Positions 1 to 42,111 of a stretch of DNA of 44,825 nt are shown here, in pieces (positions within the stretch are counted from its first letter, which is position 1; every line of letters starts with the position of its first letter). Made by a program: the position numbers and the translations under genes. The DNA is taken from sequence record NC_073087.1. One strand, written 5' to 3'. This DNA comes from Escherichia phage Gluttony_ev152. Below the pieces are notes generated by a model. That model saw only the letters and a list, made by a program, of their open reading frames with translations, did not search any database and was not told where the DNA came from.

Positions 1-381
1 CTCGCGAGCGCAACGCGCCTCAACCAGTCCGCGACGGATGCCGCTGGTGGCTTTTACCTCATAGGTCCAGACGGCATCGATCACATGCTCGCGGAAGTCG
101 GGGCCGGACTTTACCTTGCGCTTGCCGACCATGATGATATCGCCGCGGTCGATGGTATTGGCGCTAAACAAGCCGGTACGCATTAGTAAGCCTTGCGGTA
201 TGCAACTACGCCCGCCCGCCTGCCCCTCAAGGTACATACCTGCAAACATCTCGCCCAGAACACCGACAAGACGGCTTTGCTTGCACGCGTCAGACTTTAA
301 GCGCCACTGGTCAAACTCGATGCTTGCTATCATCGCCGCCAGGTGGAATTGTTTACCGGATATTTCATATTCGCCGTACAT
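1..381 (-). CDS. hypothetical protein, 3' end truncated by window edge
   Basis: Minus-strand frame open from ATG at 379-381 to position 1 (begins MYGEYEISGKQFHLAAMIAS); not in supplied track; the + strand ORF 116..421 lies antisense to it. No family recognised. Confidence 0.45.
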   Translation of the reverse strand, partial: MYGEYEISGKQFHLAAMIASIEFDQWRLKSDACKQSRLVGVLGEMFAGMYLEGQAGGRSCIPQGLLMRTGLFSANTIDRGDIIMVGKRKVKSGPDFREHVIDAVWTYEVKATSGIRRGLVEARCARE

Positions 382-423
382 CGTGTGGTCCTCATTGATG
401 CGGGCCGAAGCCCGCGATTAGAA

Positions 424-918
424 TTATTTCAGTGCGCTACGTACCAGTGTTTTTTCCATGTTGCGGAAGTCTTCCGGCGTCATGAGGATTTTGGATCCGT
501 CTTCGCCGGTGAGCACGACCATAGGCTGGACGTCCTGGGCTACAACTCCGAAATTGGCGGCATTGAAATTAGTGGCTTTGATCTTGATAGGCCAACCTTT
601 AAGGCTGTCGTATTGAGCTGCCGTTGTATCGATCTGAATCTCATCATGCACGGTCATGTAAGACTCGCCCAGCAGGGCGGCATACGCCACCAGGTCCACG
701 ATGTTATCTTCCTGGTGTTTACGGTGCTGGCGTACCAGCTTTAGGCAGATCAAGAAGTTCCAGGCTTCTTGCTCGGTCAGGTCGCGACCGGTAAGCGCGT
801 TAAACACGGCGGCAATTTGTTTCGCGCTGCGTTCCTCTTTCGCGTTGTCATAGCCGTTTTCTTTCCCGCGCTGTTCCATAGTGGTGGCGGCGTTTTTGCA
901 GTATTCGTATGCTTTCAT
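424..918 (-). CDS. hypothetical protein (164 aa)
   Basis: Track ORF; ATG start; promoter-like TTGCAA-N18-TATAGT upstream on minus strand (965-994). Function unknown. Confidence 0.65.
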   Translation of the reverse strand: MKAYEYCKNAATTMEQRGKENGYDNAKEERSAKQIAAVFNALTGRDLTEQEAWNFLICLKLVRQHRKHQEDNIVDLVAYAALLGESYMTVHDEIQIDTTAAQYDSLKGWPIKIKATNFNAANFGVVAQDVQPMVVLTGEDGSKILMTPEDFRNMEKTLVRSALK

Positions 919-964
919 GATGTGGTCCTGTTTATGGGAGGCCGTATTGCCTCCCGACGCGTTA

Positions 965-994
965 ACTATAGTGCAACCAACCTATTGGTTGCAA
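965..994 (-). promoter_or_regulatory. sigma70-like promoter candidate, TTGCAA-N18-TATAGT (minus strand)
   Basis: Minus-strand -35 TTGCAA (989-994) and -10 TATAGT (965-970), 18-nt spacer ending in TTGGTTGCAC. Confidence 0.5.
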
Positions 995-1452
995 GTGAAT
1001 TTTGCAACGTTTATTGAGTAAATTTTCGGGACCAAATCACCACACGCCCGACGAATTGCCGCGATGTTCTTCGGACAGTCTTCAATGATGACCAGTTCCG
1101 ACACGTCCGCATAGCAGACCATTTTGAAAACGGCGCACGCCTTAAACTCAGGCGGCGGGGTGTCGTCCAGCATGTGGCGCATGAACAATCGACCTACGGG
1201 GAAGACCTCCAATTGCTCGGCGGTGGTGTCCCAACATTCGCGCTGCCGGTTGGTCAGATACGCGATCTCGAAGCCTTGCTCTTTGTACATGCGCAGCAGC
1301 GGCAGCATATCCATGTTCAGATCTTCGCGGACGTGCGCTTTGTGCCACTTCGCCCAGAAGGTTGATTTCGTTTTTATCCCCGGCACCAGGTCGGCACGCG
1401 CATCGCTTGAGCCGTTAATAACGCCATCCAAATCGCAAATCAGTAATTTCAT
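982..1452 (-). CDS. HAD-superfamily hydrolase/phosphatase-like protein
   Basis: N-terminal LICDLDGV (DxDGV-type HAD motif I) in 156-aa track ORF; co-oriented with replication module. Confidence 0.7.
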   Translation of the reverse strand: MKLLICDLDGVINGSSDARADLVPGIKTKSTFWAKWHKAHVREDLNMDMLPLLRMYKEQGFEIAYLTNRQRECWDTTAEQLEVFPVGRLFMRHMLDDTPPPEFKACAVFKMVCYADVSELVIIEDCPKNIAAIRRACGDLVPKIYSINVAKFTCNQ

Positions 1453-1673
1453 TTTAAACTCTCAATAAGGGTGTAACGGGCGCTTCGCGCAGTAAAGGAG
1501 TTGCACACGAAATGGCAACGCTGAGTCATGACAAGCCAACCGGTGAGGTCAAGGCCCAGGATGTATTCGGGGCGAGACGCGCGCACCACACGATTGCGTC
1601 GCGGGTCAATACCGTAGTCTTTTTGCATTTGGTCTACTACCGCGGGGTCGCGGTCAACGATTAAGATATTCAA
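1449..1673 (-). CDS. hypothetical protein (74 aa)
   Basis: Track ORF overlapping neighbours by a few nt in an operon-like arrangement; no motif recognised. Confidence 0.45.
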   Translation of the reverse strand: MNILIVDRDPAVVDQMQKDYGIDPRRNRVVRASRPEYILGLDLTGWLVMTQRCHFVCNSFTARSARYTLIESLK

Positions 1674-2139
1674 GGAGTTCTCCTTCGCTCATTATTTCAA
1701 TTTGTGCGCTGCCGATGGGCGGCGCTTCGTCAAATATTATCAATTGCTGGCATTTGTTATTGCTCGGCCCGACTTCACCGGTGACGGCGTGAATGAATCT
1801 AATCCGCCAGTCCAGAAGAATTATCAGGTTTGCAGTCTTCCGGGCCAGCCTCGCCCACTTCGTCGACGTGTCCTGATTCAGCAGCATGACAGTCCGGCGT
1901 CCGTGCGCTGCGCACTCTACCCACGGCAGCGGATCGGAATACGGCGGATTGCACCACTTCCACCCTTTCAACTCGGACCAGTCCACATCAAGCGCGCTGT
2001 GTTCCGCCGTGAAGTAACGCGGTAGCAGGTGGTTTGCATCGCTTGCCGCCATATCGTAACGGAATCGGTACTTCCGACGAAGCGGTTTAAATAAAGCTGG
2101 CGGCGTGCGCCAGCTATCTTTTTGCTCACTCTTCTGCAT
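1654..2139 (-). CDS. DNA N6-adenine methyltransferase (phage Dam family)
   Basis: DSWRTP near N-terminus and NPPYS catalytic motif, hallmark of phage Dam-type MTases; 161 aa. Confidence 0.8.
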   Translation of the reverse strand: MQKSEQKDSWRTPPALFKPLRRKYRFRYDMAASDANHLLPRYFTAEHSALDVDWSELKGWKWCNPPYSDPLPWVECAAHGRRTVMLLNQDTSTKWARLARKTANLIILLDWRIRFIHAVTGEVGPSNNKCQQLIIFDEAPPIGSAQIEIMSEGELLEYLNR

Positions 2140-2584
2140 GATCTGGGTCTATCGCATACAGGGCAATTTTCTTGTCGCTGGACAGAACGCGCCGGACTCG
2201 GGCCATATCCGCCGGACCCAGCGGTCGGCCATCGGAATAGTAGCTGCCGTTCGCACGCCACGCTATCAGCACCAGGTCTTTCCGGTCGATCTTAGACTGG
2301 CGGCCCTTCGGGCGCACGTACGCCTCGGCCCGTTTGCAATGCTCGCGCAAACCTTCGGCTGTGAGTCGATTTAGTGCGACGGTGGTTGTGTACCCGGTGC
2401 GCTGCATAATACCCATCAACTCATACAGCAGATCGAAGCGCTCCTCTAATTCCTTGCGCGCCTTCTCCTCGCCTTCATAGCTCGCCAGGTAGGTGTCTGC
2501 CAGCGCGCTAACACGTTCGACCTGTTCGCGGGCTTCGAGGCATTGCGCGGCCCAGTAATTTTTCTCTTCTTGTAAAATTTTCAT
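2126..2584 (-). CDS. hypothetical protein (152 aa)
   Basis: Track ORF, tight coupling with flanking minus-strand genes. Confidence 0.55.
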   Translation of the reverse strand: MKILQEEKNYWAAQCLEAREQVERVSALADTYLASYEGEEKARKELEERFDLLYELMGIMQRTGYTTTVALNRLTAEGLREHCKRAEAYVRPKGRQSKIDRKDLVLIAWRANGSYYSDGRPLGPADMARVRRVLSSDKKIALYAIDPDHAEE

Positions 2585-2827
2585 TTATTTAATCTCCGTA
2601 GTGCGGATTTCCTTGCGAGGAATAAATTTGCCGTCTTTCTCGACCCAGCAAGTTCCGTAACGCCATTGGGTATTACGGCCTGTTTGCTCGACATATACGG
2701 TCTTGCATTCGTAGCGTTCCGTGTAGTAAATAGCCGCGGTAGGTACGAAAATACAAACGGCGATCATGAGGGTGAGTATCACCCAAAATCGAAGGTCGCC
2801 GTCGTAGTCGAAAAATAATGATTTCAT
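2585..2827 (-). CDS. small membrane protein
   Basis: Internal ATG (M15 of track ORF 2585..2869) preceded by GGAGA at proper spacing; hydrophobic segment WVILTLMIAVCIFVPTAAIYY. Confidence 0.5.
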   Translation of the reverse strand: MKSLFFDYDGDLRFWVILTLMIAVCIFVPTAAIYYTERYECKTVYVEQTGRNTQWRYGTCWVEKDGKFIPRKEIRTTEIK

Positions 2828-2871
2828 CGTGTTGTCTCCAGGTATTAAAAAGGGCGTCCAACCGGACACCC

Positions 2872-2900
2872 TTAAGATAATGCAACCAATCTAATTATGC
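2872..2900 (-). terminator. putative intrinsic terminator (minus strand)
   Basis: Forward AAAAAGGGCGTCCAACCGGACACCCTT; on minus strand a GC hairpin followed by T-run, downstream of gene ending at 2908. Confidence 0.4.
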
Positions 2901-2907
2901 AACCAAT

Positions 2908-3231
2908 TTACGAATAAAAATTTGGGTCGCGTGCAACGTCTACCAGATACAGATTGCTGATTCGGTTGCCGTAGTGGCCTGGTGTTCGCTGGCGGCACAC
3001 AACGGCGTAGCCTGGAGGAATTGTATTGCCGGTCGCGATAATCCACGCCACGCGTGCGCCCGATAGAGTTTTGCCGTTGCATTCGATGCGCGTTCCGCCA
3101 TCGGCAGTGTTAAGGTTGCCGATTTTGCAGCCGGTGGACTTCAGACGAATGACGCCGGTTTTGCTGTCGTAGGAGAATAACTGGTTAGTCATTGCAACCG
3201 AAAAATCAATGGCTTCGAATGTAGTATTCAT
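2908..3231 (-). CDS. putative AP2/HNH-associated DNA-binding protein
   Basis: IECNGKTLSGARVAWIIATG resembles the G-K-x-AHR-AW-x-G pattern of phage AP2-domain/HNH homing-endonuclease accessory domains; by eye only. Confidence 0.4.
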   Translation of the reverse strand: MNTTFEAIDFSVAMTNQLFSYDSKTGVIRLKSTGCKIGNLNTADGGTRIECNGKTLSGARVAWIIATGNTIPPGYAVVCRQRTPGHYGNRISNLYLVDVARDPNFYS

Positions 3232-3938
3232 TTTAAATTTTCCTCATTGACCGCTATCGCGAAGCCGCGCGGGGTGAGCGACCGGATTAATTTTGTGCGT
3301 GCTGATTTGCCTCCGAGGCGACTATACTGCTTCGAGTACCCTTTTTCAACGAAAACAGGTTTCTTCTCTGGCATACGGAAGCCGTTGCCGGTCCATAAGC
3401 AGGTCAGCTTCGGATATGAATCGCGGGCGTTGATGTATTCCGGGAAGAGCGGGTGTACGTCATCCTCCGGCAGATATCCCCCATACTCCCACGGGTCGAA
3501 TGAGTGATCCGGCTTGCGCCACTGGGTGGAAAGCACACTGCGCGGATTCTCAATCATATATGGCACTTCGAAGAAGTCACCCAGGTAAGCGGCGATCTTC
3601 GCGGTGCGCACCGCCTTAAGCTGAAAGGCTGGGTCTTTAGCTCGCTTGCGCGGGAAAGCGGGCGCACCGCTCACTGCCAGATCCGTGCACGGAGGAAACG
3701 CATAGATGATATCTGGCGTACCGAAATCGCCATTCATCGCACGGTCTACAAAGTCCAGATCGATAAACTCATTGCGATACCGGATTCCGCGACCATAAAT
3801 CCGGTAGTCAAGGTAAGACCCGTGGTCGGCTTCGGAGTAGTTGAAGCAATAACACTTATGCCCCATCTCGGCAGCACGCTCAATCATCAAGCCGCTGCCG
3901 TCAAACAATGACCAGATTGTCATTTTAGCAATAGTCAT
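3228..3938 (-). CDS. putative DNA methyltransferase (C5-cytosine-like)
   Basis: LFDGSG (SAM-binding FxGxG-like) and FPPCTDLAVSG (PC catalytic-type motif) plus ENPR; 236 aa is short for a canonical C5-MTase, so the assignment is tentative. Confidence 0.5.
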   Translation of the reverse strand: MTIAKMTIWSLFDGSGLMIERAAEMGHKCYCFNYSEADHGSYLDYRIYGRGIRYRNEFIDLDFVDRAMNGDFGTPDIIYAFPPCTDLAVSGAPAFPRKRAKDPAFQLKAVRTAKIAAYLGDFFEVPYMIENPRSVLSTQWRKPDHSFDPWEYGGYLPEDDVHPLFPEYINARDSYPKLTCLWTGNGFRMPEKKPVFVEKGYSKQYSRLGGKSARTKLIRSLTPRGFAIAVNEENLK

Positions 3939-5359
3939 TTGCGCGCCTTTTTAGCTTTCATGTATTCCATCAAGTCGTCCTGTATATCTTGCTTACTGTC
4001 GCGACGCTCGGCGACCAATTCGTCCAGTGTCCCGCGCGCCTGGATAATGTAGACGAATACCGGTCGAGGGTGTCCGGCCTGCATCTGGCGAACCGGCCCG
4101 ATACGTTCAACGATCTGCGAAAAGTGCTCAAAGTTCCAGGTATCGGAGAAGATTGCCAGGTGATGTCCGCCGTCCTGCAAGTTAAGGCCGTGGCCTGCCG
4201 ATGCCGGGTGTGCAAACATGATGGGGATCTCGCCTCTGTTCCACGCTTCCATATCCTTATTGCCCTGCTTACCCTTACCCAACGCGACGCCGTGCGGAAA
4301 TTTCTTCTTAAGACGTGCCAGGTCATGCTTATACTGATACGCAACGAGCAACGGCGCGCCGTTCAACTCCTCCACGATACTTTCCAGCGCGTCCAGTTTG
4401 GCGTCGTGAATCTTCACCCACTCGTCGGTCCTTTCGCCGTCTTCGTCCACCTTATACACAGCGCCGGAAGCAAGCTGAAGGCACTTAATTGTCTTAGATG
4501 CCGCGTTCGCCGCTTCCACTGTTCCGCTTTCCAGTTCGGCGAATAGCTCCGCTTCGAACTGGTCATAAATCTTGCGGGCTTTCTTCGGCAGGTCCACAAC
4601 AACAGGCGTATAGATTGGCTTGTCGCACCCGAAGTATTCAGCCGCGTCAACGGTGAGGGATACATCTGACAGACGTTGTTGTATTTCTTTCTCGGAGTTC
4701 TTTAGCGGGGCGTGCTGCATAGTGAAGCTGCCAGGCTTAACCGGCTTGCTAATGAACCAGCGATCGGTAAATGCCTTATAGCTACTGCCGAGGCGTTCGC
4801 CACCGTCGACAAACCACGTCTGACCCCATAAGTCTTTAAGCCCGTTTGGCGCTGGTGTGCCGGTAAGGTTAATCCAGCGCTTGACGTGTTTATGTGCAAT
4901 CGCTGCCAGTGCGCGGGCGCGCTTGCTCCCCTGCTTGCTACGATAGCCTTTCAGCTTAGTCGATTCATCGGCAACAACGACCGTAAAGGGCCACGCATCG
5001 CCGTAATAGTCGACCAGCCACTCAACCACATCGTAGTTAACACAAACCACGTTAGCGTCGCTCTCAAGCGCGGCAATACGGTACTTCTCCGGTCCGGTGC
5101 CGTCTACGACCAGCAGGGATGAGAACCGCCATTTCTCCTGTTCCGGGGGCCATGTACCCGACGCAACACGCAGCGGGGCCAGCACCAGTACGCGGTCCTC
5201 ATGATGGGACAGGACGCCAGTCTGGAACATTTTATTCAGCGCCCACATTGTCGCGCCGGTTTTACCGGATCCCATTGTCGCCCAGATATTACATCGCTTA
5301 TGCTTGAGGATGAACGCGGTTATCAACTTCTGATATTCGCGGCGTCGGAATCTTGCCAT
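3935..5359 (-). CDS. SNF2-family (DEAD/DEAH-like) helicase
   Basis: Walker A GSGKTG, DExx-type VVADEST, LTGTPAPN motif typical of SNF2 helicases; start set at internal ATG (M31 of track ORF) abutting upstream stop. Confidence 0.8.
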   Translation of the reverse strand: MARFRRREYQKLITAFILKHKRCNIWATMGSGKTGATMWALNKMFQTGVLSHHEDRVLVLAPLRVASGTWPPEQEKWRFSSLLVVDGTGPEKYRIAALESDANVVCVNYDVVEWLVDYYGDAWPFTVVVADESTKLKGYRSKQGSKRARALAAIAHKHVKRWINLTGTPAPNGLKDLWGQTWFVDGGERLGSSYKAFTDRWFISKPVKPGSFTMQHAPLKNSEKEIQQRLSDVSLTVDAAEYFGCDKPIYTPVVVDLPKKARKIYDQFEAELFAELESGTVEAANAASKTIKCLQLASGAVYKVDEDGERTDEWVKIHDAKLDALESIVEELNGAPLLVAYQYKHDLARLKKKFPHGVALGKGKQGNKDMEAWNRGEIPIMFAHPASAGHGLNLQDGGHHLAIFSDTWNFEHFSQIVERIGPVRQMQAGHPRPVFVYIIQARGTLDELVAERRDSKQDIQDDLMEYMKAKKARK

Positions 5360-5363
5360 GTCG

Positions 5364-5582
5364 TTATTCCGCCTTTTTCCAGACTTCGGTTTCACTGTTC
5401 CAGTTCCTTTTTGTAGCGTCGTAGTTGGTGGCGTGTCCGATGTGCACACCGGTAGCCCGGAAGCTCTTAAATTTTTGCCAGCACACCGTCAACGGCAGCG
5501 GATCATTCATGCCCGCGATAAACCATACGCGATCGCCCGGTTTACATTCGCCCAGCTTGGTGAGTCGGTAATGTTCTTTCAT
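5364..5582 (-). CDS. hypothetical protein
   Basis: Track ORF 5364..5597 begins at a TTG; ATG at 5582 has GGGAGA 7 nt upstream. Confidence 0.45.
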   Translation of the reverse strand: MKEHYRLTKLGECKPGDRVWFIAGMNDPLPLTVCWQKFKSFRATGVHIGHATNYDATKRNWNSETEVWKKAE

Positions 5583-5625
5583 CGTCATGTCTCCCAAAAA
5601 TGGCGGGACAAGCCCGCCGTATTAA

Positions 5626-5799
5626 TTATTTTTGTTCTGCACGGTAGCGGCGCTGCCGTTCGCGCTCTTTCTTATTGCGGCACGATTTGCACTCTGCCCG
5701 ATACCCGTCTGGACTGCGCGCAGTCTTACCGGTGTATTTGTGGAACTGGGATAGCGGCTTTACACAGCCGCAATTACTACAACGTTTTTCTTCAATCAT
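5626..5799 (-). CDS. small zinc-ribbon protein
   Basis: CSNCGC ... CKSCRN (two CxxC pairs) in a 57-aa product starting at internal ATG with AGGA RBS. Confidence 0.45.
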   Translation of the reverse strand: MIEEKRCSNCGCVKPLSQFHKYTGKTARSPDGYRAECKSCRNKKERERQRRYRAEQK

Positions 5800-5839
5800 C
5801 TCTAAAATCCTCGATGTGGCTAACCGGCACACTATACCG

Positions 5840-6118
5840 CTATGCGACCAATTCAGCAACCAATAAATCGCAGTCGGATATGTTGTCGATAACGCGAACG
5901 TCAGCACCGCGGCGGGCCATTCGATCATGTTCACGTACCTGGTGCGGCTTAGGTTTTCCTCCGGGGCGCTTCACTTCGACGAACACTATTTTGCCGTTGA
6001 TGATAATAATCAGGTCGGGCGCACCCGCGCGCCCCTCCCATGCCAGTTTTCGGCAGAATCCGCCGACCTCTTTCACCCGTTTCATCAGGTGACTTTGAAT
6101 CTTGCCTTCTGGTGTCAT
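5840..6118 (-). CDS. VRR-NUC domain nuclease
   Basis: PDLIIIINGKIVFVEVKRPGG fits the PD-(D/E)XK VRR-NUC signature; ATG overlaps the polymerase stop (TAATG). Confidence 0.65.
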   Translation of the reverse strand: MTPEGKIQSHLMKRVKEVGGFCRKLAWEGRAGAPDLIIIINGKIVFVEVKRPGGKPKPHQVREHDRMARRGADVRVIDNISDCDLLVAELVA

Positions 6119-8409: not shown

Positions 8410-8591
8410 TGCTTTATCCTCACTACGGCGTCAGCGCTGCCGATCATGGCGAAGATGCCGTCTGACAGGGCGATCTCTTCGCCGTTGTTGCGAATCTCGG
8501 CAACTGTGAAATATTCCCCCAGTAGCTTGGACCATACTTGCATTCCGACTTTTACTTCGCTGGCTTTAATACGCATTTTTCATTGTCCTAT

Positions 8592-8617
8592 TAAAAAGCC
8601 CGCTTAATGCGGGCTTG
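8592..8617 (-). terminator. intrinsic terminator (minus strand)
   Basis: Forward AAAAAGCCCGCTTAATGCGGGCTT; minus-strand hairpin GCCCGC/GCGGGC plus T-run after SSB-like gene. Confidence 0.6.
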
Positions 8618-8634
8618 AATAGTGGGCTTTGCCC

Positions 8635-9438: not shown

Positions 9439-9482
9439 ATGTATCGGGGTTATTGTGAGCCACCCCGTCCGGCTTGGTTGCT

Positions 9483-9511
9483 AATCTACTTGGTTGCGTC
9501 TGAGCGGTCAA
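9483..9511 (-). promoter_or_regulatory. sigma70-like promoter candidate, TTGACC-N17-TAGATT (minus strand)
   Basis: Hexamers read on minus strand upstream of SSB-like gene; GCAACCAAG motif in spacer and just downstream of -10. Confidence 0.45.
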
Positions 9512-9750
9512 GCATTTTTATTAAAAAGATTTCGTGTCACGTAGTTGGTGGCGTTCTCGATCCAGCTTAACGGCGGGCGGTCGATGTTCTTCCCCACCCA
9601 GTCGACGGCAGCGTCGCTATATCCGTCGTCCAGCCAACGGGTTGGATGACGAATCATCCAGGCCACCATCAACACGCCTTGCACGCAATGCAGGATAAAG
9701 CCCAGCGCGCCGAGCAAAAACATCAATAAGATTGCGAATACTTTATTCAT
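9508..9750 (-). CDS. small membrane protein
   Basis: 80 aa with N-terminal hydrophobic helix FAILLMFLLGALGFIL; overlaps start of downstream gene. Confidence 0.45.
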   Translation of the reverse strand: MNKVFAILLMFLLGALGFILHCVQGVLMVAWMIRHPTRWLDDGYSDAAVDWVGKNIDRPPLSWIENATNYVTRNLFNKNA

Positions 9751-11173
9751 TGCTTAAGTCCTCGTCAGTAGCTACAGACCACGCAGGGCGCGGGTCGTCG
9801 ATGGGTGCTAATACCGGTTTAGCTGGTGCGCGCGTGATTTTATCACACAACTTTGCCCACACTTTCGGCTTCTCGTCCTTCAATACCTTCTCGGCATCAG
9901 TAGGGCTGAGTAATGTTTCTTTGTACATAACATCGCGCTTGATCCGGGCCTTCGTGAAGATTTCAATCACTTCGCTTTCGTCCGCCCACTTGCGGATCCC
10001 TTCCTTACCGGCAACCATTTTGAGGCCCAGCGATTCGCCATCGCCAGCCATAACCGCCTTGAATACCGCGGACTCGATAGCCTTGATGTGCTGGCGCATT
10101 GCGTCTAAACCTTCATACGCCTTGCGCAGTTCCGCGGCAGTCATAGCGCCGGAGGCCGCTTCTTTCTTGCCACGCTTCGCACGTCGTGCCGCTTTGCGGG
10201 CTTCGCGGGCCATATTGCGGTCATGATTGGCGCATTCTTCCTCTGTCGCAATACTCACGTCGTCGCCCAGGTCTTCGTCTGTTGCCGTTGGTTGGGTCAT
10301 CGTGTCGATTGCGGCCTTAGCGCGGGCGCTACACTGATCCGCAAATCTGCACCACTGACACGCATCAACGCTCGGTCGGAAGTCGGCACGGGTGAGTCCC
10401 TTTTTGCCGCGGGCGTACGCTTCCAGGGCGGCGATAGCACGCTTGGACGCAAACTTCGCGAATATCTCCAGGGCTTCTACCGAAATATCCCACTCCGACG
10501 CCCCGCCGCAATACGGCTGGAAGATAACCAGGCGCACGGTCGTGATGTCGTACATGGATTGCAGCTTGCGCAGCAGGCCGAGCGCATACAGCATAAGCTG
10601 TTTGTTTTCTTTCGCCTCGACCTTATGCCGCCCCGTCTTCAGGTCGCCAACAATCAGCATGTACGTGCCGTCGGTCTTCTTCATGACCATGACCATATCC
10701 GCAGTGCCGAACGTCTTAACCCGGTTGCCGTCGATCTCGAAGCCAGAGTGTAGGACGCGGGTCAGATCGGCGCGCATCTCAAGCTGAACAAACTCCGCCA
10801 CTTCGAGGAGCGGTCGCCAGTGGTCGATGTACGCGTCGCACTGTTTCACCATGTCGTCGTTGACCAGTACGCCGCCTTTCGGCGCTTTCGGGTGCGCCTT
10901 TACCGGCCCCTTACCTTCGTTCTCGACGTAACACCCTTTGTACGTCTTAGCGGTTATCAGCTTCTCACCGGCGATAATACGGTTTAGCACGACTTCAGAT
11001 ACGGTGTGCATACTCGTACCGTTAATCGCCGCTTGCCCGGATTCGTTCGGGATACCCTGTTCTACCACCAGGGCGGCGGGGCAACCCATCCATTTTTTAG
11101 CACCGGATGGCCCGAGTAATGAATGTTCCGTATTGCTACCGGATTGCGTTTTACGTTTTGGTTTAATCGCCAT
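9743..11173 (-). CDS. PD-(D/E)XK nuclease, Cas4/DUF2800-like
   Basis: 476 aa; cysteine cluster CQWCRFADQC typical of Cas4/RecB-family Fe-S nucleases; conserved neighbourhood with SSB and polymerase. Confidence 0.7.
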   Translation of the reverse strand: MAIKPKRKTQSGSNTEHSLLGPSGAKKWMGCPAALVVEQGIPNESGQAAINGTSMHTVSEVVLNRIIAGEKLITAKTYKGCYVENEGKGPVKAHPKAPKGGVLVNDDMVKQCDAYIDHWRPLLEVAEFVQLEMRADLTRVLHSGFEIDGNRVKTFGTADMVMVMKKTDGTYMLIVGDLKTGRHKVEAKENKQLMLYALGLLRKLQSMYDITTVRLVIFQPYCGGASEWDISVEALEIFAKFASKRAIAALEAYARGKKGLTRADFRPSVDACQWCRFADQCSARAKAAIDTMTQPTATDEDLGDDVSIATEEECANHDRNMAREARKAARRAKRGKKEAASGAMTAAELRKAYEGLDAMRQHIKAIESAVFKAVMAGDGESLGLKMVAGKEGIRKWADESEVIEIFTKARIKRDVMYKETLLSPTDAEKVLKDEKPKVWAKLCDKITRAPAKPVLAPIDDPRPAWSVATDEDLSNE

Positions 11174-11361
11174 TATTCCACCCTTGAAAACTGAGCAATG
11201 TAATAATCATGTTCAACATTGGCCCGCTTAGCGGCATTGTTCATGGTAGCCGCCAGTCCTCGAGCTTGCATCCAGCAGCAATTCCAGTTTTGATTCATAA
11301 TAATTTCTGGTTGCTCGTCGCCGGTAATACGGCAACGAAATAAAACAAAGAAGATAGCCAT
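11173..11361 (-). CDS. hypothetical protein (62 aa)
   Basis: Track ORF in operon context; weak. Confidence 0.35.
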   Translation of the reverse strand: MAIFFVLFRCRITGDEQPEIIMNQNWNCCWMQARGLAATMNNAAKRANVEHDYYIAQFSRVE

Positions 11362-11613
11362 TTATTTTGTCTCCCAGCGGTCAATTGTTCTTGCTTCGGA
11401 TGCAACTGCGAAGCGAACATATTCCAGATTGGAATCCGCCCAAATATAAAAGTCGGGATTAGTAAAGGTGGTGCGCTTGATTTGCGCGGGTGTATTGCGG
11501 CGTTTATCTATTACGGCAACTCGCGACTGAAAGCTGCCGATGCGTTCGAATAGCCAATAATAAGGGCGTTGGTCGCGTGAATCCACCGCCTCGATTAGCG
11601 TGAAGCGTGCCAT
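11362..11613 (-). CDS. hypothetical protein (83 aa)
   Basis: Track ORF directly following terminator-flanked repeat protein gene. Confidence 0.5.
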   Translation of the reverse strand: MARFTLIEAVDSRDQRPYYWLFERIGSFQSRVAVIDKRRNTPAQIKRTTFTNPDFYIWADSNLEYVRFAVASEARTIDRWETK

Positions 11614-11625
11614 TGTCTCGTCCTC

Positions 11626-11654
11626 TAAAAAGAGGCCCGCTAATCTGCGGGCCG
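11626..11654 (-). terminator. intrinsic terminator (minus strand)
   Basis: Forward AAAAAGAGGCCCGCTAATCTGCGGGCC; hairpin plus T-run on minus strand after gene ending 11662. Confidence 0.55.
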
Positions 11655-11661
11655 GAATATA

Positions 11662-12180
11662 TTAATCTTCCAGTTCGAAATAGGTTTCGACGATTTCTTT
11701 TAGCTCTTTGTGGAAGTCTTCGACGTCGTCATCTTCCAGCTTGGCGATTGATTTGATCTCGAACGATTCCAGCAGGTCGTCGAATTCGTCGTTCGCATCG
11801 TCGTCGTCACCACCGGCGATAATCGCGGCATACTGTTTGATCTCGTCGCGCATCTCTGCCAGCGGATCGGCATCTTTCTTACCTTTGCCTTTCGCCGGTG
11901 CTTTTTTAGACTTAGCCGGTTTTTCGTCTTCGGCGTCTTCGTCGTCGTCATCTTCTACGACTTCTTTTTTGGCCTTACCCTTCGCCGGTGCTTTTTTAGC
12001 TTTAGCCGGTTTTTCGTCTTCGGCGTCATCGTCGTCATCTTCGACAACTTCTTTTTTGGCCTTAGACGGCTTCTTGTCTTCCTGTTTACCAACGGCAGCG
12101 CCAACGGTTTCATAATGTTTAGCGATGGTTTCCAGTGCTACTACGCCGCGAGTGATCAGGTTTACGATTTGCTCAAACAT
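11662..12180 (-). CDS. acidic/basic charge-block repeat protein
   Basis: ATG at 12180 with GGAGATATACC upstream; two tandem 31-aa repeats KKEVVEDDDDDAEDEKPAKAKKAPAKGKAKK; first gene after the leftward promoter. Confidence 0.6.
   Translation of the reverse strand: MFEQIVNLITRGVVALETIAKHYETVGAAVGKQEDKKPSKAKKEVVEDDDDDAEDEKPAKAKKAPAKGKAKKEVVEDDDDEDAEDEKPAKSKKAPAKGKGKKDADPLAEMRDEIKQYAAIIAGGDDDDANDEFDDLLESFEIKSIAKLEDDDVEDFHKELKEIVETYFELED
11880..12070 (-). repeat. tandem repeat of about 93 nt in charge-block protein gene
   Basis: Two near-identical units (CCTTCGCCGGTGCTTTTTTAG...TTCTTTTTTGGCC), each encoding one 31-aa repeat. Confidence 0.6.
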
Positions 12181-12376
12181 GGTATATCTCCGATTGGTTA
12201 AGTTTAGGTGTCGGCAGTTAACTTCGTCGGTGGCCTTAACATATTGCCAGGTTACGCGTTCTCCCGTTCGGGTAGTGGACCTGGTTATATAATCACGGTT
12301 GGGAATCCTGACACTTCGATCCGGCCCCTGCGTTGCCCCTCTCCAGTTTGCGTCCTGCATCCTGTCGACGGAGTGA

Positions 12377-12406
12377 ATGATAGATTGGTTGCAGGATGGG
12401 TGTCAA
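12377..12406 (-). promoter_or_regulatory. leftward promoter candidate, TTGACA-N18-TATCAT
   Basis: Consensus -35 and near-consensus -10 on minus strand, TGCAACCAAT in spacer; about 200 nt upstream of first leftward gene. Confidence 0.55.
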
Positions 12407-12454: not shown

Positions 12455-12523
12455 ACCAATAAGAGACAATGAGACGAGAATTATTATTACACGCGTGCGC
12501 GCCCGTTTCAATATCCAAAGGAT

Positions 12524-12552
12524 TTGACACCGTGCAGTTTTGGGTGTAGTTT
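12524..12552 (+). promoter_or_regulatory. rightward promoter candidate, TTGACA-N17-TAGTTT
   Basis: Consensus -35 with weaker -10; followed by inverted repeat TTGGTcattAACCAA and GAGGG RBS of HTH gene. Confidence 0.45.
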
Positions 12553-12583
12553 CGTTGGTCATTAACCAACTGAGGGCAGAGCA

Positions 12584-12913
12584 ATGAATGTAAACGACGC
12601 AATCGAAATGTTAACGAAGACTGTTTGCAGTGAGACAAGCCGGTCATGGGCATACACCGATGCCGTGGGGGCTGTGTTATTTGAAATCGAACGACTGCGG
12701 CTTACCGAAAAAGAATTGCGCGCCAGGCTGGAACTACTCAACGGTACAGCAGCAAGCAAGCTGCAAAAACACAATGAAGAAATGGAAGAATACAAAAAGC
12801 AGGTTATCCGTTTGCGCGCCGAGGGCAAATCTTGGGCGATGATTGCCGAGTTGACCGGAATTAATCAGAGCACAGTGCGCTCCTGGGTACGCAATAATAA
12901 AACTTCTAAGTAA
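12584..12913 (+). CDS. helix-turn-helix DNA-binding protein (putative regulator)
   Basis: C-terminal GKSWAMIAELTGINQSTVRSWV resembles resolvase/sigma-region-4-type HTH; first rightward gene after divergent promoter. Confidence 0.65.
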   Translation: MNVNDAIEMLTKTVCSETSRSWAYTDAVGAVLFEIERLRLTEKELRARLELLNGTAASKLQKHNEEMEEYKKQVIRLRAEGKSWAMIAELTGINQSTVRSWVRNNKTSK

Positions 12914-15188: not shown

Positions 15189-15265
15189 ATCCTGCGCGCA
15201 TTGGTTGCCGATATGGGAATTCCCATATCGCTAAAAGGTTAAATTTTGCGCGCATTGGTTGCCAT
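15189..15265. promoter_or_regulatory. direct repeat - 20-bp perfect palindrome - direct repeat, candidate protein-binding or origin element
   Basis: TGCGCGCATTGGTTGCC twice flanking GATATGGGAATTCCCATATC, immediately after primase/helicase stop. Confidence 0.4.
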
Positions 15266-15348
15266 TTTGAGTGTTTTTATCAGGTCGTATTGGTTGCCGT
15301 GTAGTGTGAATATAGTGAATAGTTATGCAGTTTTGTTGCATAAAGTAA

Positions 15349-15510: not shown

Positions 15511-15665
15511 AATCCGGGGATTGCAAAATACACGGCAGCATGATGCGAATTGCGGTCGACGATGAACTAGGCAACCAATGCGAGTTGCATTATGCTGAGT
15601 GAAAAATGCGGTTTGCAGTCGCAGCAGATAGCGATCAACTTTTTCATGCGCGTGATTAATATTGG

Positions 15666-15694: not shown

Positions 15695-15722
15695 GGTTGC
15701 ACACCAACATGAGGACTGAACA

Positions 15723-16037: not shown

Positions 16038-16307
16038 ATGACCCGTAGACGCGCAAAACAGCTTTCGTGGCATATCCCCCTGCATTGCATACGAATATGG
16101 GCTAAGAATGCGAATGAGGGGGATTCTGTATTCTGGTGCTATCGCGATGATGTGAAGCCGTTAACGCAGACTCGCTACTTGCACCAGTTCGCAGCAAAGC
16201 ACGGATTCTATGTGCGGACCTCCTTGCAACCAATGGGGATCCGTATTACATTACGCCGGAAGCCCGCCGTTGAGCGGGTAGGCAAACACTGGAGACTGAG
16301 AAAATGA
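16038..16307 (+). CDS. hypothetical protein (89 aa)
   Basis: Track ORF, tight spacing with neighbours. Confidence 0.5.
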   Translation: MTRRRAKQLSWHIPLHCIRIWAKNANEGDSVFWCYRDDVKPLTQTRYLHQFAAKHGFYVRTSLQPMGIRITLRRKPAVERVGKHWRLRK

Positions 16308-18991: not shown

Positions 18992-20134
18992 ATGCACCCG
19001 CAAACTAAAATCACCGACGAGCAATTGATCGACGAGTTGCAATCCGGCACTACCGCGAAAGAGATTGCGAAGAAGTACGGAATTGCTCTTCGAAACGTCT
19101 ACATGCGCAAAGCCCGCCTATCGAAGAAAGGGATTGGTCACGGCAACGATGACGTAATCCGTAAGCGCGTTGCCGATGGCTTTGGGGTTAAGCGCGTATC
19201 GGCCCTGGTGCGCGGTAATGGCGAAGAGGTCATGTCGTGGGTCATCACTGAGCAGGACAAGGAGCGCCAACTCGAAGCTATGCGCGCTGTTGTCGAGGGT
19301 ATGAACAGCGAAATCACACCGGCAGCGCCAGTAAACGCCCCGCCAGTACCGATCCAGGCGCTAGACTTGCTCAACTTGTACACCGTGTCCGACTTCCACC
19401 TGGGCATGTTGGCCTGGGGCGAGGAGACTGGCGAGGATTGGGATATGGCGATTGCCGAAGACCTGTTCTACCGCTGGTTTGTCGAAGCCTTCGCACGCGC
19501 ACCGGACGCAGGCACTGCCGTAATTAATATCCTCGGTGATATGGCGCATTTTGATAGCCTTGATGCCGTCACACCGGCAAGTGGTCACGTACTGGACGCG
19601 GATACCCGCTACCAGAAGCTGGTCCGCTACATGATTCGCATGGTGCGCAACGTGGTGGAACTGGCGCTGCAAAAACACCACAAAGTCAAACTGCTAATCG
19701 TCCAGGGGAATCATGACGAGTCTGGCATGATTTGGCTGGCTGAAATGTTCAATACGCTGTACGAGAACGAGCCGCGCGTCGATGTGGATACATCCCCGGA
19801 CGTATACAAAATGGTGCAGCACGGCAAGACAACGCTGTTCTTCCACCACGGGCACAAAGCGCGATTCGATGTTATCGAGCAGGTTATGATCGCTAAATTC
19901 AGACAGGCGTTCGGGTCGAGCGAATACAGCTACGCGCACGTAGGCCATTTGCACCACCAGAAGATTGTTGAATCCCGCAACATGATTGTTGAACAGCACA
20001 GGACGCTCGCAGCGAAAGACGCCTACGCCAGTCGTGGTGGTTGGATGTCCGGTCGCAGCGCCAACGTCATTACCTACAGCGCCAACTACGGCGAAGTAGC
20101 GCGCTTAACCATTAGCCCGGAAATGTTGAAGTAA
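18992..20134 (+). CDS. HTH domain fused to calcineurin-like metallophosphoesterase
   Basis: N-terminal TAKEIAKKYGIALRNVYMRK HTH-like segment; phosphoesterase motifs SDFHLG, GDMAHFD, GNHDE, HHGH, GHLHH in canonical order. Confidence 0.7.
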   Translation: MHPQTKITDEQLIDELQSGTTAKEIAKKYGIALRNVYMRKARLSKKGIGHGNDDVIRKRVADGFGVKRVSALVRGNGEEVMSWVITEQDKERQLEAMRAVVEGMNSEITPAAPVNAPPVPIQALDLLNLYTVSDFHLGMLAWGEETGEDWDMAIAEDLFYRWFVEAFARAPDAGTAVINILGDMAHFDSLDAVTPASGHVLDADTRYQKLVRYMIRMVRNVVELALQKHHKVKLLIVQGNHDESGMIWLAEMFNTLYENEPRVDVDTSPDVYKMVQHGKTTLFFHHGHKARFDVIEQVMIAKFRQAFGSSEYSYAHVGHLHHQKIVESRNMIVEQHRTLAAKDAYASRGGWMSGRSANVITYSANYGEVARLTISPEMLK

Positions 20135-25268: not shown

Positions 25269-26033
25269 TTAGCGAGGAATGCCGCAAATCTCGTTGAGTG
25301 TTTTCACATCCAGCGCCACCGCCGTGGATTTTGGCTTGTCCGGGTAAGGGATGAATTGCTCAACTTCAGGCCATGCCTTGATCAGCTTCTTATCGGTATT
25401 GTGCATATCCAGCACGCCGGTAACAGTTAGTTTGAACGCGTCATACTTAGCTCGCAACTCGCGTCGGGCCTTGTCGTTACGGTCCAGGCGCTTGCAGAAA
25501 TCATGATCCGCCGGAAAATCAGCACGGCAGCGGGGCTTATAGATCGGCAGCGCTTTCCCATCCTCGTCCAATTCGCACACAGAAGCCAGCATAACTTCTT
25601 CGTACCCAGGCACAATATCGCCGAGATCGGGAGACAGCTTATTCATGTATTTATATTCCCAGTATCCGCGATGTACGCGGTATCGGAGACCGTCACCGCT
25701 CAAGGACAAGGTGCGAACATTTCCTCCTGCGTTGATTTCGAAAGTGGCGTCGTAAACTCGGTCGATACCTTTTGGGCGGTCGTGGTTATAGTAATACGTC
25801 GCCTTGTTGGTGTAGACGCTTACGCCGTACATCTGCGACTTGTCGTCGTGGATTAACTGTATATGCTCGCGTAGCGCGGCGAACGTGCGAATGCCTTTTG
25901 GCATACAGTCCATCGTAATTGCGTACGCCAGGTCGCGAGAGTCCATCATGATGGATTTGGCTTCGGTCGCGATTTCGTGGTCGCGCAGGATGTTAGCCAG
26001 AATCTGGTTTTTAATGTCTTTCGTCAGTCTCAT
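25269..26033 (-). CDS. hypothetical protein, reverse-oriented moron candidate
   Basis: 254-aa product from internal ATG with GAGGA RBS; own minus-strand promoter TTGCAA-N18-TATATT (26056-26085); lies between rightward spanin terminator and rightward scaffold gene. Confidence 0.55.
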   Translation of the reverse strand: MRLTKDIKNQILANILRDHEIATEAKSIMMDSRDLAYAITMDCMPKGIRTFAALREHIQLIHDDKSQMYGVSVYTNKATYYYNHDRPKGIDRVYDATFEINAGGNVRTLSLSGDGLRYRVHRGYWEYKYMNKLSPDLGDIVPGYEEVMLASVCELDEDGKALPIYKPRCRADFPADHDFCKRLDRNDKARRELRAKYDAFKLTVTGVLDMHNTDKKLIKAWPEVEQFIPYPDKPKSTAVALDVKTLNEICGIPR

Positions 26034-26055: not shown

Positions 26056-26085
26056 TGCAACCAATATAGTGCAACCAATATGCGG
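26056..26085 (-). promoter_or_regulatory. promoter candidate for reverse-oriented ORF, TTGCAA-N18-TATATT
   Basis: Minus-strand hexamers with TTGGTTGCAC abutting -10 and repeated after it; drives ORF 25269..26033. Confidence 0.55.
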
Positions 26086-40899: not shown

Positions 40900-40924
40900 A
40901 TGGGGCCAGATGGCCCCATTTTCA
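40900..40924 (+). terminator. putative terminator between convergent genes
   Basis: GGGGCCAGATGGCCCC followed by ATTTTC; lies between J (+) and minus-strand ORF end. Confidence 0.45.
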
Positions 40925-41887
40925 ATACATATTCGGGATGACGAGTAGCGGTGTTGGTACTGCAATATTTTTACTTGGCATCTGGAATTGCTGCCGTGAG
41001 TAGTTGCCGATGACGCGGTTTTTAGCGACGCGCACATTATTACCCGCCATGCGTATGCCGTTCATGCGGACGTGGTTATAGCCACCGTTGTTCTGAATCA
41101 GTGCGCCGGTGTATGAAAGCTGGATCAGGCTGTTTCCAATATTCTGGTCGCCCGTTCCGATGTTAATAGTGCGGTCATATACGAACGGCTTGTTCACCGT
41201 CGAGAACGTAACCTGATTCTGGTTATTCGTCATGGTGATTCCGGCCCCCGGAGTGGGTGGTGTGTTGTTGAATATCACCAAATCCATGTCCACCGAAGCC
41301 GCCACATCGTCGATGCCTCCATAGGACGCGTTGCGGACGATAATACTGCCGCCATCGAAGCCTACTGATACGTTGCCATCATCCCATCGGGCGAACGGAA
41401 CACCGCCAACCGGCAAGGCCATACTACCGTTGACGCGCACGCGCTGTGCGTATCGGCAGGTCATTAGCTTAGACACGTTGGATATGGCGGTGAAGTCCGT
41501 CGAGTTAGCCACCAGTAAACCTGCGTTGCGCGAACCAACCGGCAGCACTTCCATTATGACGCCCGCCCATTGTGGTAAACCAGAGTACGCGCCATACGCA
41601 TCCTCCCCGCGCAGGGTGATACCACTATTACCGTTGCGAGTAACCGACGTAACGTAAAACGGGTCGGGAATTACCAGGGTCTGGTCAAACACCTCAATCA
41701 CTTCTACCGGGCGAGTGAGCGCGACGATGACCTGCGACCCATCCGTAAGCGGGGTGTTAATGGTTAGCGTCTTGTTGGACTGTGCCCGCTGGTTAAAGCT
41801 GGTGCAGTATGACGGCGCGCGGAGTCCCGCGGTTATCTCCATGCGCGGCCTTCCGTCGTTATAGTCGATAAGTATTCCAGCGCCCAT
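40922..41887 (-). CDS. hypothetical Asn/Gly/Thr-rich protein (beta-helix-like)
   Basis: Reverse-oriented; starts right after the lipoprotein gene stop (ATG 41887 with GGGAG RBS, alternative GTG 41896); repeated N/G/T-rich segments; no signal peptide. Confidence 0.5.
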   Translation of the reverse strand: MGAGILIDYNDGRPRMEITAGLRAPSYCTSFNQRAQSNKTLTINTPLTDGSQVIVALTRPVEVIEVFDQTLVIPDPFYVTSVTRNGNSGITLRGEDAYGAYSGLPQWAGVIMEVLPVGSRNAGLLVANSTDFTAISNVSKLMTCRYAQRVRVNGSMALPVGGVPFARWDDGNVSVGFDGGSIIVRNASYGGIDDVAASVDMDLVIFNNTPPTPGAGITMTNNQNQVTFSTVNKPFVYDRTINIGTGDQNIGNSLIQLSYTGALIQNNGGYNHVRMNGIRMAGNNVRVAKNRVIGNYSRQQFQMPSKNIAVPTPLLVIPNMY

Positions 41888-41889
41888 TA

Positions 41890-42111
41890 TTACCACTCCC
41901 GTGATTTAACTGATACTGTGCCTGAGAAATTGCCGTCGCTATCTGAAGACAGCCCAGTGAATCGCATGTCTACATCTCCTGCCGGTACTTTTTGCCCGTC
42001 AACGTAGCGCAACATGCAGCTACCGTAAGCAACCGTAACGCAATCGCCATTGTTGCGTTCTACGGCGCAACCGGACAAAAGAACCGCACAAATCATAATT
42101 AAAGTTTTCAT
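41890..42111 (-). CDS. small outer-membrane lipoprotein (Cor/Llp-like superinfection-exclusion candidate)
   Basis: 73 aa from internal ATG with AGGGGA RBS; signal peptide MKTLIMICAVLLSGC with lipobox LSGC; reverse-oriented between J and tail fiber genes. Confidence 0.55.
   Translation of the reverse strand: MKTLIMICAVLLSGCAVERNNGDCVTVAYGSCMLRYVDGQKVPAGDVDMRFTGLSSDSDGNFSGTVSVKSREW

Follow-up and report, generated by a model that had tools for sequence, protein, structure and literature searches.

The phage genome and its gene map

The stretch of DNA analysed here (the window, 44,825 nt) comes from Escherichia phage Gluttony_ev152 (NC_073087.1) and is the near-complete genome of a Dhillonvirus, a member of the HK578 / SSL-2009a / Sodalis phage SO-1 group of virulent siphophages. 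The subject of this work is a nine-nucleotide word, A-TTGGTTGC, repeated in its intergenic DNA and placed in the cores of predicted promoters, and the protein that may bind it. More than 150 E. coli phage records matched the window at 90-94 % identity. The gene map was derived from phage GeorgBuechner, whose annotated proteins were projected onto the window and cross-checked with the list of open reading frames (ORFs); on this homology-based map intergenic DNA constitutes 6.6 % of the window.

The leftward genes (1-12360) encode functions of DNA metabolism and modification (Dam, Dcm, SNF2 helicase, PolA, single-stranded DNA-binding protein and a PD-(D/E)XK nuclease). The rightward genes start with a small gene encoding a helix-turn-helix (HTH) protein (12584-12913) and the gene for the helicase-primase, followed by small uncharacterised genes, the lysis cassette, the gene for an HTH-phosphoesterase (18992-20134), the terminase and the head and tail genes. 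Five complete genomes (GeorgBuechner, LM40P1, HK578, SO-1 and CHD5UKE2) and two metagenomic contigs, L083 and L084, were used for comparison. LM40P1 is 81 % identical to the window; L083 and L084, which were reached via the HTH protein, align to it at only about 71 % identity and encode a helicase-primase 68 % identical at the protein level.

A nine-nucleotide word over-represented in intergenic DNA

The exact 9-mer TTGGTTGCA was present in 11 copies in comparison to 0.47 expected from dinucleotide-preserving shuffles, far above chance, and none of the 100 shuffled sequences reached 11. With one mismatch allowed the number of occurrences was 29 versus 11.3 expected. The 8-mer core TTGGTTGC was found 21 times, and ATTGGTTGCA was the most over-represented 10-mer of the window. 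All sites listed in the first-pass annotation, which was made from the sequence alone, could be recovered in both orientations as exact or one-mismatch copies, but the pair at 5843-5863 had been overlooked (Table 1).

The scarcity of the motif in coding DNA, noticed earlier without a systematic scan, was borne out by the counts: 16 of the 21 copies of the 8-mer are wholly intergenic (binomial p = 2e-15), which corresponds to 5.4 copies per kb of intergenic DNA versus 0.12 per kb of coding DNA, and dinucleotide shuffles of the intergenic DNA alone gave 0.19 copies. Two further copies, at 985 and 5856, lie within the last codons of a gene yet form part of the promoter of the next one. The copy at 16225 is located in coding DNA, is conserved and falls within an internal promoter-like site, and the remaining coding copies, at 33360 and 36710, equal the chance expectation of about two.

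Alignment of 18 non-coding copies gave the consensus A-TTGGTTGC-(A). Since the invariant core of this alignment follows from the way the sites were selected, an independent measure of constraint was taken from the relatives, as described below.

Position of the motif in predicted promoters

Promoters were predicted with a sigma-70 weight-matrix scan, and an independent scan concurred for the strongest sites. Every intergenic copy to which a predicted promoter could be assigned (P1-P5 and P7-P10, Table 1) was located between -40 and +4, in either orientation, with approximately ten copies direct and seven reversed. In the direct register -40..-31 the TTGCA of the motif is at the same time the -35 hexamer (TTGCAN), as seen in P2, P3, P7 and P10 and, among the relatives, in P1 and P10 of LM40P1 and in P2, P3 and P7 of L084. 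Other direct copies abut the -10 hexamer at -23..-14 (P1, P2, P9), cover the -10 and the start at -9..+1 (P7, P9) or occupy -28..-19. The reversed copies were found at -35..-26 (P1), -30..-21 (P8), -23..-13 (P4, P5) and -7..+4 (P4, P8). The hexamers of P4, P5 and P8 (TTGACC/TAGATT, TTGACA/TATCAT and TTGACT/CATACT, respectively) are near consensus and owe nothing to the motif, so that the overlap with promoters is not circular there.

The details of sequence reported in the first-pass annotation were reproduced: TTGGTTGCAC is followed directly by TATAGT (-10 at 970..965) and by TATATT (-10 at 26068..26063), the motif recurs just after the -10 as the TATATTGGTTGCACACC copy at 15689-15705, and the leaders 15689-15722 and 26061-26033 (-) are nearly identical. 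Both copies of P3 lie within the last codons of gene 6118..5840. The reversed copy at 16225-16233 is found in the same register as in P1 and is conserved in CHD5UKE2, and the site 16224..16252 may be an internal promoter. The palindrome TTGGT-N5-ACCAA occurs three times in the window in comparison to 0.02 expected, twice within the copies of P7 and P9 and once, as a half-site palindrome, at 12555-12569, just past the -10 of PR, the promoter of the HTH gene. In L083 and L084 the place of the latter palindrome is held by a full reversed copy of the motif, which suggests autoregulation of the HTH gene.

A conserved word that occupies the RNA polymerase footprint in several registers and points either way is characteristic of a repressor operator. 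The direct copies at -40..-31 could alternatively indicate an activator or sigma-appropriation element, with which a phage protein, for example the HTH protein and its Sigma70_r4_2-like domain, would recruit or re-target the host polymerase, the -40..-31 copy being a substitute -35. This register, the site of sigma region 4, is shared by five or more promoters (P2, P3, P7, P10, possibly P6, and P1 of LM40P1), the score of the candidate protein against the sigma-70 region 4 HTH family exceeds the cut-off, and one gene class is marked by the motif. Such a role is nevertheless unlikely, as the reversed, spacer and -10/+1 copies (P1, P4, P5, P8, P9 and the second copy of P7) are incompatible with an element of fixed position and would block the polymerase rather than recruit it. 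Good -35 and -10 hexamers are already present, and the Sigma70_r4_2 match is one among several generic HTH matches. For similar reasons the 'phage-specific promoter element' put forward in the first-pass annotation accounts for the direct -40..-31 copies, which do supply the -35, but leaves the reversed, spacer and -10/+1 copies unexplained; these copies, together with the constraint on ATTGG, exclude a pure promoter element.

Two other readings of the motif were discarded. A role at the RNA level was excluded: the copies point in both directions, and the majority are located 5' of the predicted starts. In the TTGGT-N5-ACCAA palindromes the 5' arm coincides in part with the -10 and so would not be transcribed, and no Rfam match was found in the window. 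A sigma-54 reading of TGGCAC..TTGC (15677-15688) failed, by eye, on the wrong GG-GC spacing.

The motif marks one class of promoters

The association of the motif with gene function was assessed for the sense-oriented intergenic promoter candidates with scores of at least 8.8. All nine motif-bearing candidates precede replication, modification or accessory genes, whereas six of the eight motif-free candidates precede structural genes (terS, scaffold, capsid, a head-tail gene, tail tube and tail chaperone), the other two being the divergent pair at 12483-12552 (Fisher p = 0.002). The motif singles out one promoter class, the non-structural one, and not nearly all promoters. The earlier statement that it is embedded in nearly every intergenic promoter was therefore too broad, since the promoter-like sites of structural genes and the divergent pair lack a full copy. 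The motif-bearing promoters are as near to the consensus as the motif-free ones and hence do not look activator-dependent.

The structural promoter-like sites at 20163-20194, 30118-30149, 30904-30935, 26096-26127 and 26911-26942 have shared -35 contexts of their own, GATTTGG(T/C)(G/C) three times (TTGGTG, TTGGCG, TTGGTC) and AATTTTGCGA twice. GATTTGG occurs 14 times in the window versus 6.2 expected, and these contexts may point to a separate class of late promoters.

Table 1 Motif copies, predicted promoters and associated features of the window
Feature	Position (strand)	Sequence or hexamers	Location and remarks
Exact 9-mer copies	985-993, 12385-12393, 15693-15701 (+)	TTGGTTGCA	
Exact 9-mer copies	972-980, 2881-2889, 2898-2906, 16225-16233, 18796-18804, 26056-26064, 26070-26078, 42166-42174 (-)	TTGGTTGCA	
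One-mismatch copies	9474, 9490, 15201, 15255, 15290, 15570, 15662, 18819; pair 5843-5863		
P1	965..994 (-)	TTGCAA-18-TATAGT	before genes 918..424 and 381..1; inverted motif pair
P1 copy	985-993 (+)	TGCAACCAA	-34..-27 (register -35..-26), provides -35
P1 copy	972-980 (-)		-22..-15 (register -23..-14), fills spacer, abuts -10
P2	2874..2907 (-)	TTGCAT-17-TATCTT	before 2827..2585, Dam and others; copies direct, 17 bp apart
P2 copy	2898-2906		-39..-32 (register -40..-31), gives -35
P2 copy	2881-2889		-22..-15 (register -23..-14), abuts -10
P3	5831..5864 (-)	TTGCTG-17-TATAGT	before 5799..5626, SNF2 helicase, Dcm
P3 copy	5855-5863	TTGGTTGCT	gives -35
P3 copy	5843-5851	TTGGTCGCA	spacer
P4	9474..9511 (-)	TTGACC-17-TAGATT	before single-stranded DNA-binding protein, DNA polymerase
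P4 copy, reversed	9490-9498		spacer, abuts -10
P4 copy, reversed	9474-9482		right after -10, about -5..+2 (register -7..+4)
P5	12377..12406 (-)	TTGACA-18-TATCAT	best sigma-70 match of the window; before leftward operon 12360..9508
P5 copy, reversed	12385-12393		spacer, -22..-15 (register -23..-13)
PR, HTH gene promoter	12524..12569 (+)	TTGACA-17-TAGTTT	no full motif
HTH gene, candidate regulator	12584..12913 (+)		109 amino acids; first gene of rightward operon, directly upstream of helicase-primase
Region-B copies, direct	15201-15209, 15255-15263, 15290-15298 (+)	TTGGTTGCC (all)	between helicase-primase stop and GCGGGACA iterons
P6, weak		TTGCCG, AATAGT at 15318	15290-15298 copy could supply -35; reads into iterons
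GCGGGACA cluster	15350-15452		module to 15510
Isolated copy, reversed	15570..15578 (-)	TTGGTTGCC	region B; conserved in CHD5UKE2
P7	15661..15707 (+)	TTGCGC-17-TATATT	before 15723.. and small genes upstream of lysis cassette
P7 copy, direct	15662-15670		gives -35
P7 copy, direct	15693-15701		over -10 and +1, within palindrome TTGGTTGCACACCAA
Internal promoter-like site	16224..16252 (+)	TTGCAA-17-TACATT	in gene 16038..16307, toward next gene (16304..)
P8	18790..18827 (+)	TTGACT-18-CATACT	right after terminator hairpin; before 26-codon ORF and 18992..20134
P8 copy, reversed	18796-18804		just past -35
P8 copy, reversed	18819-18827	TTGGTCGCA	-10 end and +1
P9	26050..26092 (-)	TTGCAA-18-TATATT	before gene 26033..25269
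P9 copy, direct	26070-26078		spacer, abuts -10
P9 copy, direct	26056-26064		over -10 and +1, part of palindrome 26050-26064
GCGGGACA cluster	31657-31915		module to 31973
P10	42142..42175 (-)	TTGCAA-17-AATACT	before lipoprotein and membrane-protein genes 42111..40922
P10 copy, direct	42166-42174		gives -35

Conservation and turnover of the motif

Nine motif-bearing regions were aligned to the five complete genomes and one metagenomic relative. Identity to LM40P1 was 95.6 % in the motif columns versus 65.7 % in the other intergenic columns (p = 1.6e-20). Conservation per position rose to 0.89-0.95 exactly across A-TTGGTTGC in comparison to approximately 0.75-0.8 around it, and of the 9-10-mer described in the first-pass annotation it is the 9-mer that is supported, the final A being no better conserved than the background. 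Each complete relative contained 19-23 copies of the 8-mer. In L083 and L084 ATTGGTTGC was among the top over-represented words, with 10 of 13 copies intergenic and at the same promoters.

Individual promoters demonstrated both persistence and turnover of the copies. The architecture of P2 and the layout of P8 recur in L084, where P3 is also conserved. The upstream copy of P1 is inverted in the window and direct in LM40P1, amid sequence that cannot be aligned, with TTGCAA at -35 in both phages. P10 of LM40P1 has gained a second copy in the spacer (ATTGGTTGCAatcacgtATTGGTTGCAC followed directly by TATATT), and in L084 P5 carries two overlapping reversed copies and the HTH gene's own promoter a full copy. 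Retention of the word while its flanks diverge and copies flip or are gained shows selection acting on the word and not mere inheritance. Of the hallmarks of an operator regulon, those accessible to computation were all found, namely a multicopy intergenic word, overlap with promoter cores and purifying selection on the word.

The same data bear on the possibility that there is no dedicated binder and that the word is intrinsic to paralogous promoter cassettes, spread by duplication or recombination and kept for the sake of good sigma-70 promoters. The TTGCA of the motif does act as the -35 in several promoters, and longer stretches are common to P1 and P9 (upstream GCAAAATTC(A/G)CTTGCAA) and to P7 and P9 (leader TATATTGGTTGCACACCAAC..ATGAGGAC), which points to promoter duplication. 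The strongest constraint, however, includes ATTGG, which has no role in sigma-70 recognition, reversed spacer copies are found in promoters with unrelated -35 hexamers (P4, P5, P8), the promoters are unlike each other beyond the 9-mer, and copies were gained and flipped independently in diverged lineages with changed flanks. This explanation was considered quite improbable.

The motif is unchanged in phages isolated on E. coli, Shigella, Salmonella and Sodalis, as would be expected if a conserved host factor read it. A DNA-binding protein of Enterobacterales, for example of the GntR family, could in this way couple phage expression to host physiology. The PdhR box is ATTGGT-N3-ACCAAT, with the half-site ATTGGT; the motif resembles this half-site, and the three TTGGT-N5-ACCAA palindromes could be viewed in the same light. 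A search with ATTGGT-N3-ACCAAT gave one match with 2 mismatches, in coding DNA, versus 1.37 expected, and the palindromes present have N5. The conserved 3' TTGC lies outside the PdhR box, and mostly single asymmetric sites would be poorly bound by a dimeric GntR protein, which makes a host reader very unlikely.

No earlier description of the motif was found in the literature searched, where full-text matches in both orientations were primers and unrelated sequences. Annotation in GenBank records is limited to consensus promoters (HK578) or 'repeat regions A and B' (SO-1) and does not include the motif. An IMG/VR scan with an exact 15-mer (ATTGGTTGCACTATA) gave 76 loci, among which only the Dhillonvirus loci exceeded chance copies or aligned to the window, and no further lineage with the motif was found by this route. 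The paired motif ATTGGTTGCA-N5-9-ATTGGTTGCA was searched in one genome per bacterial species and gave 103 matches, with no enterobacterial host or prophage among them.

These 103 matches proved to be 9-nt tandem repeats, apparently of the coding type, (ATTGGTTGC)n and variants, in unrelated phyla (Chloroflexota, Bacteroidota, Paenibacillus, cyanobacteria) and have no relation to the phage motif.

The motif as a putative operator and its candidate binder

Taken together, A-TTGGTTGC is probably, though with no great confidence, the operator of a phage-encoded regulator, present as dispersed repressor sites at approximately ten early/middle promoters of the sigma-70 type, and the most likely binder is the 12584-12913 protein. 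We infer that the hexamers are real promoters, that a protein binds the word, that binding represses, and which protein it is. The operator overlapping early/middle promoters proposed in the first-pass annotation agrees with the placement in the RNA polymerase footprint, the presence of both orientations, the genus-wide conservation and the restriction to non-structural genes, the function itself being deduced from these features. A sequence-specific DNA-binding protein made by the phage would bind A-TTGGTTGC and compete with the host RNA polymerase at the predicted promoters, because the copies lie at the -35, in the spacer or over the -10/+1. The early/middle promoters of the replication, DNA-modification and accessory modules would thus be turned down together, in a Cro-like manner, and the promoters of structural genes would escape repression. 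A direct copy at -40..-31 would serve as the -35 hexamer as well, so that promoter and operator are fused. The HTH protein encoded by 12584-12913 would be the binder and would regulate its own promoter.

Of the two HTH proteins named earlier as candidates, the 12584-12913 product is credible and the other is not favoured. The former matches Pfam HTH_23 (2e-7), Sigma70_r4_2 (2e-6) and HTH_28, all above the cut-offs, and has an invariant DNA-binding half, whereas the N-terminus of 18992-20134 gave sub-threshold HTH matches only. The 18992-20134 gene is, moreover, missing at the syntenic position of L084, a relative that has retained the motif (20 kb of the 42-kb contig examined). Scans of 20 small proteins against Pfam and PHROGs revealed no other annotated transcription regulator besides the 12584-12913 product.

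The AlphaFold2 (AF2) model of the HTH protein (mean predicted local distance difference test score 82) comprises a long helix followed by a C-terminal three-helix HTH. In 18 clusters of this protein residues 47-106 are almost invariant, more conserved than the helicase-primase (68 %) or the DNA polymerase (81 %) of the same relatives, and residues 1-45 are hypervariable. The allele of HK578 and CHD5UKE2 has a different N-terminal part with the same HTH core (LR.EG.SW..IAE.TGIN.ST.R.W), recognition helix included, and the same motif in the genome. A DNA-binding domain that hardly varies is matched by a multicopy site that hardly varies. Both alleles have few relatives, all of them Dhillonvirus-like and all with the identical motif. 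Judging from the sequences, the hypervariable N-terminus joined to a frozen DNA-binding domain may represent an arms-race or partner-specific surface. The assignment of this protein as the binder of the motif is tentative.

A bolder version, in which the HTH protein is a free-standing module resembling sigma region 4 with a dual role in a strictly virulent siphophage, replacing region 4 at -40..-31 to mark phage promoters for the host polymerase and shutting the same promoters from the spacer or +1, and in which the N-terminal 45 residues are the arms-race surface, is highly improbable. If true, it would give a phage that lacks both a polymerase and a sigma factor of its own a novel means of establishing a temporal programme, and the arms-race surface would be directed at a host factor or a defence system.

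Several points weigh against a dispersed operator read by the HTH protein. The promoters are consensus matches only, and in the direct -40..-31 class the -35 is called from the motif itself. The scan found no convincing promoter at the region-B copies 15201-15298 and 15570. The spacing of paired copies is irregular (9, 12, 13, 14, 16, 17, 22-23 and 31 bp), with no helical phasing, so that monomeric or flexible binding would be needed, which is unusual for a coiled-coil HTH dimer. Repression of almost all non-structural promoters, accessory genes included, also calls for an explanation of timing. In the literature searched for any Dhillonvirus, papers on HK578, SSL-2009a, JL1 and EP23 included, no promoter or motif analysis, transcriptomics, transcription starts, kinetics or binding assays were found. 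As for the protein, searches against PDB by sequence and against PDB and BFVD with Foldseek and the AF2 model gave only generic HTH matches (E of approximately 0.1-1), to LuxR/GerE, IS21 and serine-recombinase HTH domains, with no specific family. Its gene occupies the usual position of a replication initiator, and the protein could instead bind the equally invariant GCGGGACA iterons, leaving the motif without a named binder.

Region B and the iteron-like clusters

The word (A)GCGGGACA(A) is a second over-represented word of the window and forms tandem and inverted clusters in two modules of approximately 200 bp. The two are separated by about 16 kb; the first follows the helicase-primase gene and the second precedes the tape-measure gene. 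Both modules end in the same hairpin-rich sequence CCCCAGTCTTTCAGACTAGACGGGGGTCAA.. (from 15454 and 31917, respectively) and are retained in L083 and L084, the relatives of 71 % identity; they match the 'regions B and A' annotated in the SO-1 record, and neither has a match in Rfam. The alpha protein of phage P4 is a primase-helicase with its own ori and crr repeats, and by analogy the modules look like origin iterons with a second cis site, reminiscent of the ori/crr of phage P4. By the same analogy the helicase-primase itself may bind the GCGGGACA iterons.

Seven copies of A-TTGGTTGC lie within the 534-bp region B, beside the iterons and adjoining the helicase-primase gene, and the candidate HTH gene stands where a replication initiator would be expected. 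The motif might thus be a site for loading or binding the replication machinery, either an initiator or the helicase-primase, with the region-B cluster as the functional core. This is extremely unlikely, since region A has iterons but no motif, and at least 11 copies spread over 42 kb at precise -35/-10 registers are not explained by replication loading. The motif was also rejected as a replication iteron in its own right, being spread over 42 kb while the iteron-like clusters consist of a different word.

The copies at 15201..15298 vary among the relatives: HK578, SO-1 and CHD5UKE2 have one fewer, and in L084 they are reversed. The segment 15188-15296 is a 54-bp direct duplication that carries the motif (TAAAT(C/T)(C/T)TGCGCGCATTGGTTGCC, 20 of 24 positions identical), its first unit contains a perfect 20-bp palindrome GATATGGGAATTCCCATATC (15210-15229), and one unit fewer is present in the same three phages.

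Comparison with known regulatory systems

A dispersed phage operator has a close parallel in the C1 system of phages P1 and P7, in which a short asymmetric operator is present in many scattered copies, single or paired, over -35 and -10 sequences and partly hexamer-like, and one small phage protein controls many unlinked operons, as is proposed for Gluttony_ev152. Phage P1, however, is temperate, and its C1 is an immunity repressor of a different fold with a 17-bp operator (ATTGCTCTAATAAATTT), whereas the present phage is virulent and has an unrelated 9-bp site and a putative binder. The layout around PR resembles that of lambda Cro: within a divergent promoter region, a strong early promoter is followed first by a small HTH gene and then by replication genes, an operator-like sequence lies at its own promoter, and down-regulation of early transcription is predicted. 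In contrast to Cro, which binds as a dimer to three adjacent palindromic 17-bp operators at two loci, approximately 20 mostly asymmetric copies at about ten loci are found here, with no CI partner or lysogeny module. No sequence relationship or specific fold relationship between Cro and the HTH protein was detected in the PDB and Foldseek searches.

The stoperators of mycobacteriophage L5 are short asymmetric sites of the repressor gp71, a single HTH protein, present 20-30 times and mostly in short intergenic regions (cited in PMC11447400). Unlike the motif, they lie within transcribed DNA in one orientation relative to transcription and stop elongation, and L5 is temperate. A stoperator function, as in cluster A mycobacteriophages, was rejected for A-TTGGTTGC, given the mixed orientation (about ten direct and seven reversed copies) and the position on promoter cores rather than in transcribed DNA.

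The T1-like phages TLS, T1 and Rtp carry about 20 intergenic copies of a 21-nt direct repeat, aaATAGCACnnnTTGnTAAAA, whose function is unexplained and for which the roles of operator, stoperator or enhancer have been discussed (PMC11447400). They are related virulent siphophages which use the host RNA polymerase throughout and have a phage-specific intergenic word. The TLS repeats all run along the direction of transcription, approximately 76 nt upstream of start codons, whereas the word of the Dhillonviruses is a shorter one, found in either orientation and confined to -40..+4. The TLS repeat itself was ruled out, as its consensus ATAGCACnnnTTGnTAAAA gave one match with 3 mismatches in the window versus 0.89 expected.

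The MotA box of phage T4 is likewise a phage-specific word in the -35 region that accompanies a retained sigma-70 -10 and defines a temporal class. It is fixed at approximately -30 in one orientation and replaces an absent -35, whereas here the positions vary and good -35 hexamers are present. A box of the MotA type was dismissed on these grounds, there being no fixed position or orientation relative to the -10, and no MotA- or AsiA-like protein was detected among the 20 small proteins scanned with Pfam and PHROGs.

Significance for Dhillonvirus biology

Few E. coli siphophages are met as often as Dhillonviruses, both in collections (BASEL) and in screens for therapy and biocontrol. There appears to be no account of how these phages, or the related T1-like phages, schedule gene expression with the host polymerase alone. 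The present analysis provides the exact coordinates of some ten promoters in a predicted regulon, together with a mutable 9-bp site and a single protein on the short list, so that the temporal programme of a common phage genus becomes testable. The motif is new to the literature searched; the dispersed-operator type is already known, and a system of this kind is not surprising in principle. As an aid to annotation the motif flags promoters and sets the early/middle modules apart from the structural ones in approximately 190 sequenced genomes, and it constitutes a design constraint for the engineering of Dhillonviruses.

Additional observations

A 52-bp stretch at 12293-12344, within the first codons of the leftward gene 12360..11662, shares 92-94 % identity with DNA that carries no annotation in T1-like phages. 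The match is found in the 51-kb phages tunus, slyngel and Phunderstruck, which otherwise have no nucleotide similarity to the window.

The conserved 26-codon ORF (MARNDIWVLAIWSAAAFIGMVICELL) between P8 and the phosphoesterase gene (18850-18930) is preceded by a good ribosome-binding site and encodes a hydrophobic product resembling a membrane peptide. It is present in GeorgBuechner, HK578 and SO-1 (5' part) and is deleted in LM40P1.

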